A stretch of 64,000 nt of DNA from Parcubacteria group bacterium (lineage in GTDB: Bacteria > Patescibacteriota > Minisyncoccia > Moranbacterales > GCA-2747515): positions 264,535 through 328,534 of the forward strand of contig JBAZXC010000001.1 in assembly GCA_041660065.1 (NCBI GenBank). Direction: 5' to 3'. The notes beneath the pieces were generated by a model. The model saw only the letters and a program-made list of their open reading frames with translations, was not told the DNA's origin and did not search any database. This document shows, piece after piece, positions 41,282-43,145 of the stretch (its first letter is position 1; each line of letters opens with the position of its first letter). The translations under genes and the position numbers were made by a program.

Positions 41282-43145
41282 AGAAAGGAGGTGATCCATC
41301 CACAGCTTCCGCTACGGATGCCTTGTTACGACTTCACCCTTATTACCGATCCTACCGTAATTCCCGCTTTGACACGGGACCTTCGGGTATTATCAGCTCT
41401 CTTGGTGTGACGGGCGGTGAGTACAAGATCCGAGAACGTATTCACCGTGACATTCTGATTCACGATTACTAGTGATTCCAGCTTCATGGAGTCGAGTTGC
41501 AGACTCCAATCCGAACTGAGACTGGGTTTTTGAGATTGGCTCCACCTCGCGGTTTGGCAACCCTTTATCCCAGCCATTGTAGCACGTGTGTTGCCCAGGG
41601 CGTCAAGGGACATGCTGATCTGACGTCATCCTCTCCTTCCTCCCAGACTTTTATTCGCAAGCGAACAGATTTGTAGATCAGTAGAACGGTAGATTTGTAG
41701 AAAAGTCTACATATCCACATGTCTACCAGTCTAAATTTCTGCGCTTGTGCGCAAAAGTCTGGGCAGTCTCGCGTGACACATATAACACGCGACAAGGGTT
41801 GCGCTCGTTTCCCTACTTAAAGGAACACCTTACGGCACGAGCTGACGACGACCATGCATCACCTGCTTAGCACCCTCGAAGGCTACTATATTTCTATAGT
41901 ATGCAGCTAAGTTTCTAGCCCTGGTGAGGTTTCTCGCTTATTGTCGAATTAAACCACATGCTCCACCACTTGTGCGGATCCCCGTCTATTCCTTTGAGTT
42001 TTAAGCTTGCGCTCGTACTTCCCAGGCGGCATACTTAACGCGTTAGCTAAGACACACAGAGGGTCGATACTCCATATGCCGAGTATGCAGCGTTTACGGC
42101 GTGGACTACTGGGGTATCTAATCCCATTCGCTACCCACGCTTTCGTATCTCAGCGTCAGAAAAGTGCCAATAACCTGCCTTCGCCTTTGGTGTTCCCCAT
42201 GATATCAACGCATTTCACTACTACACCATGAGTTCCAGTTATCTCTCACTTTCTCTAGATGTGCCGTTTCGTGAGCGGTTCTCGAGTTGAGCTCGAGAAT
42301 TTGACCCACGACTAACACACCCGCCTACATACGCTTTACGCCCAATAAATCCGGATAACGCTTGAGGTCTCTGTATTACCGCTACTGCTGGCACAGAGTT
42401 AGTAACCTCTTATTCATTAGGTACGCTCAGTACATTGATCCCTAATAAAAGCGATTTACGACCCTAAGGCCTTCATCTCGCACGCGGTGTCGCTCCATCA
42501 GACTTTCGTCCATTGTGGAATATACGCGACTGCAGCCACCCGTAGGTGTTTGGCCAGTGTCTCAGTGCCAATGCTGGGGGTCATGCTCTCACACCCCCTA
42601 CCCGTCATAGCCTTGGTGAGCTATTACCTCACCAACAAGCTGATAGGACGCAGGCTCCTCTCAAAGCGATAAATCTTTACTCCGGAGAGCTTATCGTGTA
42701 TTATCCATCCTTTCGAATGATTATCCACGACTTTGAGGCAGATTCCTACGTGTTACTAGCCCGTTTGCCATGCCACACCATTCAACTTTCATTTACCGAC
42801 TTTTGAATTCTCTTTCTTAGCTGAGCGTATGCTTTACTTCTCAATTTCAGGCTTCTCTCCCTGTGTTGAGCTTCTTCTTTTGACGCGTACGCTTCATAAT
42901 ATACAAGCTCCCAAGGAACTCCTCTGCTTGTATAATTTGACTTGCCAGAATTATGATCTTTCATTCTCTGTCGTAAATCTTCAGTATATCCAGTATATAC
43001 TTTGTGAAGTTTTTTACTTTTAATTAGATAAACATAATACATATATGCCTATTCTAACATAAAAGCTGAATGGTGTGGCATTCGACTTGCATGCCTTATC
43101 CACACCGCCAGCGTTCATCCTGAGCCAGGATCAAACTCTCAATAT
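41282..43145 (-). rRNA. rrs: 16S ribosomal RNA gene, ~1.86 kb, containing an ORF-bearing insertion (~42790-43060) in helix 6 (V1) and a ~110-nt expansion (~41646-41760)
   Basis: Reverse complement of the 3' end GGATCACCTCCTTT at 41284-41297; reverse complement of the 5' end GAGAGTTTGATCCTGGCTCAGGATGAACGCTGGCGG at ~43105-43140; internal signatures present (GTGCCAGCAGCCGCGGTAATAC-like, AAACTCAAAGGAATAGACGGG-like, GGGCGGTGAGTACAAG). Confidence 0.9.
42782..43042 (-). CDS. GIY-YIG nuclease (UPF0213/YhbQ-like, 86 aa) encoded inside the 16S intervening sequence, same orientation as the rRNA
   Basis: VYLIKSKKLHKVYTGYTEDLRQRMKDH is the GIY-YIG motif; the ORF is bracketed by the rRNA stem CCACACCATTCA / TGAATGGTGTGG. 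Confidence 0.7.
   Translation of the reverse strand: MYYVYLIKSKKLHKVYTGYTEDLRQRMKDHNSGKSNYTSRGVPWELVYYEAYASKEEAQHRERSLKLRSKAYAQLRKRIQKSVNES

Follow-up and report, generated by a model that had tools for sequence, protein, structure and literature searches.

The 16S rRNA gene within a 64,000-nt stretch of DNA from a Parcubacteria group bacterium (positions 264,535 to 328,534 of contig JBAZXC010000001.1, GenBank assembly GCA_041660065.1; hereafter, the window) carries, in place of its helix 6, a 312-nt hairpin cassette that encodes an 86-amino-acid protein of the GIY-YIG nuclease type. Based on comparisons with related sequences, this GIY-YIG insertion looks like a member of a large family of mobile hairpin cassettes that reside in stable-RNA genes. 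The reading that we favor, with moderate confidence, is that the cassette is an intervening sequence processed at its own stem, and that a second extension of the same gene, in helix 40, is unrelated to it.

The 16S rRNA gene and the replacement of its helix 6

The minus strand of the window contains a bacterial 16S rRNA gene that is full length at 1863 nt and matched the Rfam model RF00177 with 1377.9 bits (gathering score, 50) over model positions 1-1533 of 1533. A preliminary description of the locus, made by reading the sequence, had recognized both the gene and its enlargement, and had placed it at 41282-43145; the covariance model moves these limits to 41284-43146. The 3′ half of the gene scored 625 bits by itself, all domains are there, and the 3′ end keeps the anti-Shine-Dalgarno sequence CACCTCCTTTC, features of a functional-looking gene that appears to come from a bacterium of the Candidate Phyla Radiation (CPR)/Patescibacteria type. 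Alignment to the covariance model, a check that the preliminary description had proposed, mapped two large unaligned blocks, one of 285 nt in the loop of helix 6 (around model positions 79-83) and one of 111 nt in helix 40.

A second proposed check, comparison with insertion-free alleles, altered the picture of how the cassette is inserted. Scanning of metagenome contigs for a short helix 6 followed by the clade-specific 3′ flank GGCAAACGGGYTAGTAA yielded 120 insertion-free loci, and the closest of these (L155, L175, L150 and L097) are 93-95% identical to the 16S body of the window. The native helix 6 of these closest relatives is a hairpin of only 16-17 nt (AGCGGGTTTAGACCCGC), the insertion-free allele reading ...AAGTCGAGCGGGTTTAGACCCGCGGCAAACGGG... 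across this region. Alignment of the window with L175, L150 and L097 shows complete identity (100%) over the first 68 nt of 16S and 72-77% identity in the upstream leader; the relatives have no cassette, and beyond it the alignment resumes at 93-94% identity. Because the cassette stands in place of the 16-17 nt found in the relatives, it replaces the whole native helix 6 with a stem of its own, and does not split the native loop, as had been supposed at first; the occurrence of the stem motif at unrelated sites, described below, is consistent with this revision. The cassette is thus sporadic among close relatives. No protein synteny was found between the window and the insertion-free relatives, the rRNA leader alone being held in common.

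The stem of the cassette, previously described as 13 bp, comprises 23 bp including two G-U pairs and joins positions 43081-43059 (5′ arm, ATGCCACACCATTCAGCTTTTAT) with 42792-42770 (3′ arm, ATGAAAGTTGAATGGTGTGGCAT); the sequences quoted in the preliminary description are all present. It is the dominant structure in the minimum-free-energy fold of the region (z = -7.1 relative to shuffles). The open reading frame (ORF) fills nearly all of the remaining space: 16 nt separate the 5′ arm from the ATG, the 3′ arm takes in the TGA stop and the three codons before it (N-E-S), and non-coding sequence totals 51 nt of the 312-nt cassette.

Recurrence of the cassette at helix 6 and covariation of its stem

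At least 12 contigs, assembled independently and from different samples, have the helix 6 cassette at this one 16S site. The contigs with the closest homologues of the ORF (L001, L002/L003, L005, L006, L007-L009 and L209-L213) carry it about 100 nt into the 16S gene, and the named genomes with a helix 6 cassette are those of a Patescibacteria-group bacterium, Kaiserbacteria and Berkelbacteria. When 14 helix 6 cassettes, 13 of them distinct, were aligned, 97.7% of the cells of the 23-pair stem were paired, and 12 pairs showed changes on both sides among the 13 distinct cassettes. None of 500 shuffles reached the observed values, and sliding the 3′ partners by 1-3 columns lowered the pairing to 40-52%. 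Non-Watson-Crick positions of the stem were G-U 63 times and A-C 25 times in the family as a whole, and 21 times and once, respectively, in the helix 6 group, a bias that is expected if the pairing matters in the sense-strand RNA.

These findings also address the concern that the locus might be a chimeric assembly or a decaying rRNA pseudogene. Metagenome assemblies often misjoin rRNA genes, and this general consideration is all that speaks for an artefact here, nothing specific to the locus doing so. Conversely, the gene gives a full-length covariance-model match with all domains and an anti-Shine-Dalgarno end, ordinary chromosomal genes lie on both flanks, and the same architecture, with compensatory stem changes and a conserved ORF, is present in the at least 12 independent contigs. 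An artefact or a dead gene is scarcely credible in the face of this evidence, and misassembly was rejected on the ground that the architecture recurs in independent assemblies.

Several of the 16S genes with a helix 6 cassette have additional inserted sequences. A single 16S gene in L003 (also in L002 and L004) contains two GIY-YIG hairpin cassettes, one in helix 6 and the other in helix 10 (821-1081 and 1226-1486 in L003). Because the ORFs of this pair share only 62% amino-acid identity, they represent independent acquisitions or an old duplication. LAGLIDADG ORFs are often found further 3′ in such genes (L001, 5106-5861; L005, 5531-6205; L006, 5068-5505; L210, 3460-3894), and in L001 the LAGLIDADG insertion breaks the Rfam 16S match into two pieces; no LAGLIDADG insertion is present in the 16S gene of the window. 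The 16S gene of L005 (2893-5314), in addition to its helix 6 GIY-YIG cassette, holds an insertion with a tRNA-Ile(GAU) gene at 4295-4374 (ARAGORN; Rfam tRNA, 51.5 bits), and a group II intron D1-D4 match and a LAGLIDADG ORF lie further downstream.

The GIY-YIG protein encoded by the cassette

The ORF, the location of which in helix 6/V1 and in the orientation of the rRNA had been described correctly, as had its GIY-YIG (UPF0213-like) character, matches the Pfam family GIY-YIG (PF01541; E = 4.5e-18) over profile positions 1-74 of 78. The Pfam domain occupies residues 1-71, and the remainder forms two short helices in an AlphaFold2 model of the 86-amino-acid protein (predicted local distance difference test score, 93.4). 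A homologue search retrieved 355 proteins, mostly of 84-86 amino acids. Residues Y5, Y16, G18, R26, H30, Y48-Y49-E50 and R61-E62 are invariant in a 50-sequence alignment, and the conserved GIY-YIG catalytic Tyr, Tyr, Arg, His and Glu are kept as Y5, Y16, R26, H30 and E62. Among the helix 6 copies, the proportion of nonsynonymous differences (pN) was 0.07-0.30, compared with a saturated synonymous proportion (pS) of 0.64-1.10; dN/dS was 0.03-0.16 where it could be computed, synonymous sites being otherwise saturated. The ORF is under strong purifying selection, as a maintained gene would be.

The relationships of the ORF do not follow those of the 16S genes around it. L005 and L009 are 79% identical in the amino-acid sequence of the ORF and 74% identical in 16S, while the window and L006 are 61% identical in the ORF and 83% identical in 16S. 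Together with the absence of the cassette from relatives whose 16S is 95% identical, this incongruence suggests horizontal movement.

The only solved structures related by sequence are those of the UPF0213 proteins BH0048 (1zg2; E = 1.2e-8) and EF2693 (1ywl). Foldseek, queried with the model, found 1zg2, the nuclease domain of Slx1 (6seh, 7cq3 and 4xlg; TM-score 0.61-0.67, root-mean-square deviation about 2 Å) and At-HIGLE (7wme; TM-score 0.70) to be nearest, with E values of about 1e-3 to 5e-4 for Slx1 and UPF0213, 0.18 for I-TevI and 1.4 for UvrC. The sole NCBIfam match, to grpIintron_endo, was below threshold (14.3 bits, cut-off 56). The UPF0213/Slx1-like family itself is large, with 6,596 clusters at 50% identity in a profile search at E <= 1e-10. 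By sequence and predicted fold, the protein is a minimal Slx1/UPF0213-type GIY-YIG domain without a DNA-binding module. Prokaryotic Slx1-like proteins have been described as a minimal stand-alone form that is distinct from the UvrC/homing-endonuclease lineage (Dunin-Horkawicz 2006, PMC1564403).

The nature of the protein is relevant to a classical homing explanation, in which the cassette would be a degenerate group I intron or a free-standing homing endonuclease gene that is spliced or tolerated and spreads through cleavage of the empty helix 6 allele. That distant CPR lineages have it at one and the same helix 6 site, with highly conserved 16S sequence on either side, would suit such an element, as would the patchy distribution and the incongruent identities of ORF and 16S, and experiments have demonstrated homing of LAGLIDADG elements in CPR rRNA genes (PMC11270868). 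However, an Rfam search over 42760-43085 returned no match to an intron or any other family even at E <= 10, and just 51 nt of the cassette are non-coding, which agrees with the earlier remark that the insertion is too small for a group I intron ribozyme. In addition, the protein belongs to the Slx1 lineage and lacks the DNA-binding domain of I-TevI or Seg, and the same cassette is found at 10 or more unrelated sites that share no common target sequence. We consider homing of this kind very unlikely, and the compact homing endonuclease that the preliminary description had offered as an alternative gives way to a bare Slx1/UPF0213 domain. As specific candidates, a group I or group II intron was rejected because the covariance models found no ribozyme core and so little of the cassette is non-coding, and an I-TevI/Seg-type homing endonuclease was rejected because the protein has no linker and DNA-binding domain and does not belong to the UvrC/homing lineage. 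A phage origin was likewise rejected, the family being essentially absent from viral contigs (4 partial matches in the 2.9 million of IMG/VR).

Related cassettes in and near other stable-RNA genes

A context survey of the 80 best loci, taken from one genome per species, placed 6 cassettes in 16S, 5 in 23S and 2 in RNase P RNA genes; another 28 had a tRNA or tmRNA gene no more than 150 nt away, with the cassette often 2-27 nt upstream of that gene, and 39 were located among protein-coding genes. By approximate mapping onto E. coli, the rRNA copies occupy helices h6, h10 and h17 and the tip of h44 in 16S, and H25, H45 and two further regions in 23S. H25 and H45 are the classical sites of intervening sequences excised by RNase III. 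In RNase P RNA, a 293-nt cassette occupies the P9 loop in L019 (2879-3532), whereas an ORF-bearing cassette forms P3 in L043 (130-815), in which a hairpin of about 100 nt that lacks the ORF but has the cassette termini CCCCGCACCTGAAA.../...TTTCAGGTGCGGGG sits in P12. Every RNA-embedded copy shares the orientation of its host RNA. All 28 of the tRNA/tmRNA-adjacent loci have at least one co-oriented tRNA or tmRNA gene within 150 nt (in L041 and L042 a tRNA on the opposite strand also lies upstream, no more than 150 nt away), and 31 of 38 other copies are co-oriented with the upstream ORF.

A strong bracketing stem was present in 61 of 85 cassettes. Three of these stems (L048, L074 and L077), which are unrelated palindromes, were left out before motifs were counted, and C[CT]NCAC was found in 49 of the remaining 58. 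On the 5′ side the termini have the consensus (A)CCCNCAC(A/C)C, with its complement on the 3′ side, and the CCACACC/GGTGTGG of the window conforms to it. Since the terminal motif occurs at unrelated host sites, it is a property of the cassette, not of helix 6, and the family has conserved termini, CCCNCAC.../...GTGNGGG, that mark the boundaries of the element.

The most direct indication of mobility comes from the metagenome-assembled genome UR.bin204, in which two cassettes, L023 behind tRNA-Pro and L038 behind tRNA-Leu, are 97% identical over 337 nt. Their similarity extends exactly from one inverted-repeat terminus to the other, whereas their flanks are unrelated, a pattern that marks a recent intragenomic copy. 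Both contigs also contain ORF-less hairpins of 98-99 nt that have only the 16-18-nt termini in common with the ORF-bearing cassette, and further ORF-less hairpins with family-type termini are present in L016, L047 and L048. Inspection of the junctions by eye revealed CCGA on both sides of the cassette in L023 and no matching repeat in L038.

Other observations concern the surroundings of these copies. Tandem arrays of 98-113-nt ORF-less hairpins lie beside tRNA genes in L038 (2280-3400) and L023 (3280-3900), and they come with short duplicates of tRNA acceptor-stem sequence; in L038 the 3′ end of tRNA-Leu (...TTCGGCA) directly adjoins the cassette terminus CCCCCACAC. In one subgroup, with proteins of 79-82 amino acids (L026, L033, L056, L060, L063, L079 and L082), the bracketing hairpin is missing and the gene stands 5-10 nt upstream of tRNA-Ser(UGA); this subgroup may have become fixed or domesticated.

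The properties of the termini raise the alternative that the enzyme serves itself, i.e., that the GIY-YIG protein recognizes and cuts its own CCCNCAC/GTGNGGG stem, either as RNA, causing excision, or as a DNA hairpin or cruciform, causing transposition, so that no host RNase would be needed. The sequence of the outer stem, and not its pairing alone, is conserved across unrelated sites and among cassettes whose ORFs are 45-55% identical. Furthermore, the closest folds, Slx1 and At-HIGLE, are those of structure-specific nucleases that act on branched or stem-loop DNA, the ORF-less hairpins share just their termini with the ORF-bearing cassette in the manner of MITEs (miniature inverted-repeat transposable elements), and a part in RNA metabolism is hinted at by a protein in which a prokaryotic Slx1-like domain is fused to TrmH (Dunin-Horkawicz 2006, PMC1564403). 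On the other hand, the domain has no obvious specificity module, conserved termini could reflect common descent and a need for a GC clamp, and about a quarter of the family, for example the group upstream of tRNA-Ser, lacks the stem. Moreover, we know of no GIY-YIG enzyme that cleaves RNA, and we judge this explanation to be improbable.

Expression of the ORF and processing of the host RNA

A TAnAAT hexamer precedes the ATG by 6-8 nt (once by 10 nt) in the window and in 11 of 18 other listed RNA-embedded cassettes, a set that comprises 16S-, 23S- and RNase P-embedded copies and includes copies at unrelated sites. If this hexamer acts as a -10-like box, it would be compatible with a leaderless transcript. 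The hexamer is also seen in several free-standing copies whose loop is of comparable size; in many other free-standing copies, the 5′ arm directly adjoins the ATG. A scan of the cassette for sigma-70 promoters yielded no complete promoter, the only promoter-like match lying within the ORF, and no convincing terminator was found inside the cassette; the counts of promoters and terminators were near those expected from shuffles. No recognizable or conserved Shine-Dalgarno sequence precedes the cassette ORFs.

A leaderless transcript from within the cassette is part of an alternative in which the 312-nt hairpin is retained as an enlarged helix 6 of mature 16S rRNA, as the helix 40 extension may be, while a separate internal transcript serves to express the ORF. 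Helices 6 and 40 are peripheral, and extensions there would be sterically tolerated; helix 40 is a variable hairpin throughout the clade; the -10-like hexamer stands 6-8 nt before the ATG in most RNA-embedded copies; and covariation of the stem is equally expected of a retained helix. Nevertheless, the stem is a near-perfect 23-bp duplex of the size of RNase III substrates, relatives occupy H25 and H45 of 23S, the classical sites of excised intervening sequences, and no full promoter was found within the cassette. A translated ORF inside a mature rRNA would be unprecedented to our knowledge, and the metatranscriptomics of Brown et al. in 2015 reportedly found CPR rRNA insertions to be missing from the rRNA. 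(Tsurumaki et al. 2024 cite that study for the protein families encoded in insertions; PMC11270868.) Retention in the mature rRNA is, in our view, unlikely.

The reading that we find probable, although far from assured, is that the cassette is an intervening sequence that is processed at its long stem, as the preliminary description had inclined to think, that it belongs to a family of mobile hairpin cassettes, and that the helix 40 extension is separate from it. As is typical of intervening sequences, the cassette is situated at the tip of a peripheral, variable helix, is bounded by an evolutionarily kept stem of about two helical turns, and occurs sporadically among relatives. We infer RNase III excision, fragmentation of 16S rRNA, the mode of expression of the ORF and the target of the nuclease, as follows. 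The cassette would be transcribed within the pre-16S rRNA, always in the orientation of the host RNA gene, and its long, covarying, G-U-tolerant stem would form in the RNA and serve as a processing site for a double-strand-specific RNase of the RNase III type. Removal of the ORF-bearing loop without religation would leave a 5′ fragment of about 75 nt and the remaining 1.5 kb or so of 16S, including the helix 40 extension, which would be held together by the base of the cassette stem, acting in helix 6's stead, and by numerous long-range pairings within the 5′ domain. The nuclease would be translated either from the released RNA or from a leaderless transcript driven by the -10-like box. Acting on DNA, it may aid the persistence and spread of the cassette, perhaps by cutting hairpins or cruciforms that form at the ends of the cassette or at target hairpins, a role that is suggested by the resemblance of its fold to Slx1, by the conservation of the hairpin termini and by the MITE-like derivatives.

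Several considerations weigh against this account. Fragmented 16S rRNA is rare outside of a few symbionts, and the excision of the cassette, the sites of cleavage and the fragmentation of 16S rRNA are inferred. Neither a recognizable Shine-Dalgarno sequence nor a full promoter precedes the ORF, and a nuclease domain of 86 amino acids without a DNA-binding module may be unable to act alone. With respect to mobility, the presence or absence of the cassette at 5% 16S divergence would not separate gain from loss, and with synonymous sites saturated, the incongruence of ORF and 16S, suggestive as it is, falls short of proving horizontal transfer. The window has a single copy (there is no second GIY-YIG gene, and GGTGTGG occurs once on its plus strand), so that the evidence for mobility comes from relatives. 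Finally, the ORF of the analogous element of Coxiella appears to be untranslated (PMC4990558).

The helix 40 extension and other features of the window

The second extra segment noted in the preliminary description, a long hairpin in the 3′ major domain, is real. The loop of helix 40 (model positions ~1157-1162; E. coli ~1166-1170) contains 111 inserted nt, at 41647-41757, which fold as one long hairpin (-56.5 kcal/mol; z = -6.45). Its interpretation as a separate insertion event did not hold. In 59 distinct related 16S genes, helix 40 ranges from a canonical 16-17 nt up to 219 nt; it measures about 45-50 nt in the closest relatives of the window and 124 nt in the window itself (the 111-nt insertion plus the native stem). 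A single hairpin is formed in 50 of the 59 genes (median z, -7.7), and the extensions are AT-rich and, apart from the base of the helix, mutually unrelated. Because the length of this helix varies across the whole clade, the extension is best viewed as a lineage-typical variable hairpin that is separate from the cassette and does not reflect a discrete insertion event. The idea that it is a decayed cassette was rejected, given that its base consists of native helix 40 sequence and that the helix is variable across the clade.

Table 1. Features of the 16S rRNA gene in the window
Feature	Position	Strand	Basis
Complete 16S rRNA gene	41284..43146	-	RF00177, 1377.9 bits
Extended helix 40, a single long hairpin with base CCCAGAC.../...GTCTGGG	41642..41763	-	Covariance model and fold
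Whole hairpin cassette, 312 nt (16S nt 66-377)	42770..43081	-	Comparison with insertion-free relatives
5′ arm of cassette stem, ATGCCACACCATTCAGCTTTTAT, including the family core motif CCACACC	43059..43081	-	Minimum-free-energy fold and covariation
-10-like hexamer TAGAAT, ending 8 nt before the ATG	43051..43056	-	Comparison of loop sequences
GIY-YIG ORF, 86 amino acids (stop codon included in end coordinate)	42782..43042	-	Pfam PF01541
3′ arm of cassette stem, ATGAAAGTTGAATGGTGTGGCAT	42770..42792	-	Minimum-free-energy fold and covariation

The 16S gene stands alone in the window, since no further Rfam match, and hence no 23S or 5S gene, was detected across its 64 kb and ARAGORN found no tRNA gene there; it is flanked by ordinary chromosomal genes. 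The gene directly downstream (37857-40817, minus strand) encodes a 986-amino-acid protein with a major-vault-protein shoulder domain (PF11978; E = 2.3e-18), a domain that is unusual in bacteria. GC skew is negative in all 2-kb bins and the majority of long ORFs are on the minus strand, from which the window probably lies within one replichore.

Relationship to known systems

Classical intervening sequences are known from the 23S rRNA of Salmonella and Leptospira and the 16S rRNA of Caedibacter. Another, in helix 45 of Coxiella burnetii 23S rRNA, carries an S23p ORF and is excised by RNase III (PMC4990558). The cassette resembles these elements in being a long-stemmed hairpin at a helix tip, with a small ORF in the orientation of the rRNA and a patchy distribution among relatives; cassette relatives are found at exactly 23S H25 and H45, and fragmented rRNA would be the expected outcome. 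In contrast, its ORF encodes a GIY-YIG nuclease instead of a four-helix-bundle intervening-sequence protein, and its site is helix 6 of 16S. While the Coxiella ORF is decaying and apparently untranslated, that of the cassette is under strong purifying selection, and while excision of the Coxiella element has been shown (PMC4990558), that of the cassette is predicted here.

The nearest precedent among CPR bacteria is the analysis of 380 16S and 348 23S genes by Tsurumaki et al. (2024), who found GIY-YIG ORFs in 15 insertions of 16S and 15 of 23S, all of which resembled neither class of intron (PMC11270868). GIY-YIG insertions, which the preliminary description had called uncommon, are thus indeed a minority, but a documented one. 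Like the cassette, the insertions in that catalogue are at least 100 bp long relative to E. coli, carry a PF01541 ORF without being introns, and lie at less conserved stem-loop tips (PMC11270868). They were only counted, and were called sparse and not concentrated at particular sites, whereas the helix 6 site recurs here in at least 12 contigs; unlike the catalogued insertions, the cassette also has defined, conserved hairpin termini, occurs in RNase P RNA and in tRNA/tmRNA flanks, and has ORF-less derivatives. The literature, our coverage of which is incomplete, such that an earlier description is possible, yielded no account of the conserved termini, of the recurrence at helix 6, of the RNase P, tRNA and tmRNA sites, or of the ORF-less derivatives. 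Accordingly, the presence of GIY-YIG ORFs in non-intron insertions of CPR rRNA genes is already known; what appears to be new is the conserved termini and the occurrence at further helix tips of 16S and 23S, in RNase P RNA and in the flanks of tRNA and tmRNA genes, always in the orientation of the host gene.

Among GIY-YIG proteins, the characterized UPF0213 members (BH0048, 1zg2; EF2693, 1ywl) are similarly minimal and devoid of auxiliary domains, but they are products of ordinary chromosomal genes of unknown function, whereas the cassette subfamily is embedded in hairpins of stable-RNA genes and, unlike those members, has an invariant YYEAY motif of its own. I-TevI resides in group I introns, and the Seg enzymes of phage T4 are free-standing, with SegB located in a tRNA gene cluster. 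The cassette has in common with them the GIY-YIG catalytic chemistry, residence in or beside conserved RNA genes and a patchy distribution. It differs in that its protein has 86 amino acids instead of some 200-250, lacks a linker and DNA-binding domain and belongs to another GIY-YIG lineage, and in that the element has no ribozyme, is bounded by inverted repeats and is essentially absent from viral contigs.

In repetitive extragenic palindrome (REP) systems with their associated transposases (RAYT) and in MITE-type systems, a nuclease gene is flanked by inverted palindromic repeats and is accompanied by many ORF-less copies. The cassettes are reminiscent of these systems in having an ORF between inverted copies of a motif, ORF-less hairpins that share the termini only, and near-identical copies at unrelated loci. 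They differ in relying on a GIY-YIG rather than an HUH or DDE enzyme, in their small copy numbers and in their location inside stable-RNA transcription units; furthermore, the junctions of L023 and L038, as read by eye, establish no target-site duplication.

Implications

The enlarged and probably fragmented 16S rRNA explains how organisms of this kind escape primer-based and length-filtered 16S surveys, and the ORF of the cassette should not be annotated as a free-standing chromosomal gene. On a larger scale, insertions in CPR rRNA genes have so far been explained mainly by LAGLIDADG homing, with the GIY-YIG insertions forming an unexplained minority. The evidence presented here ties the latter to a single family of hairpin-bounded cassettes, which is also found in RNase P RNA and tRNA operons, and it is this family-level pattern, more than the single copy in the window, that makes them of interest.

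We suggest, tentatively and as something that we regard as possible but short of probable, that these cassettes constitute a so far undescribed class of mobile element, consisting of a hairpin of about 310 nt with conserved termini and a gene for a minimal Slx1-type nuclease. Such an element would specifically occupy stable-RNA units, where its own stem would cause the host RNA to be processed around it and where the very high transcription of those genes would permit its expression. It would spread by action of the nuclease on hairpin or cruciform ends, leaving behind ORF-less mini-hairpins, by which helices in the structured RNAs of CPR bacteria would be remodeled. This pattern provides testable hypotheses about the way in which structured-RNA genes gain expansion hairpins and about the function of the UPF0213/Slx1-like family, and it may point to a new mechanism of mobility based on a structure-specific nuclease.

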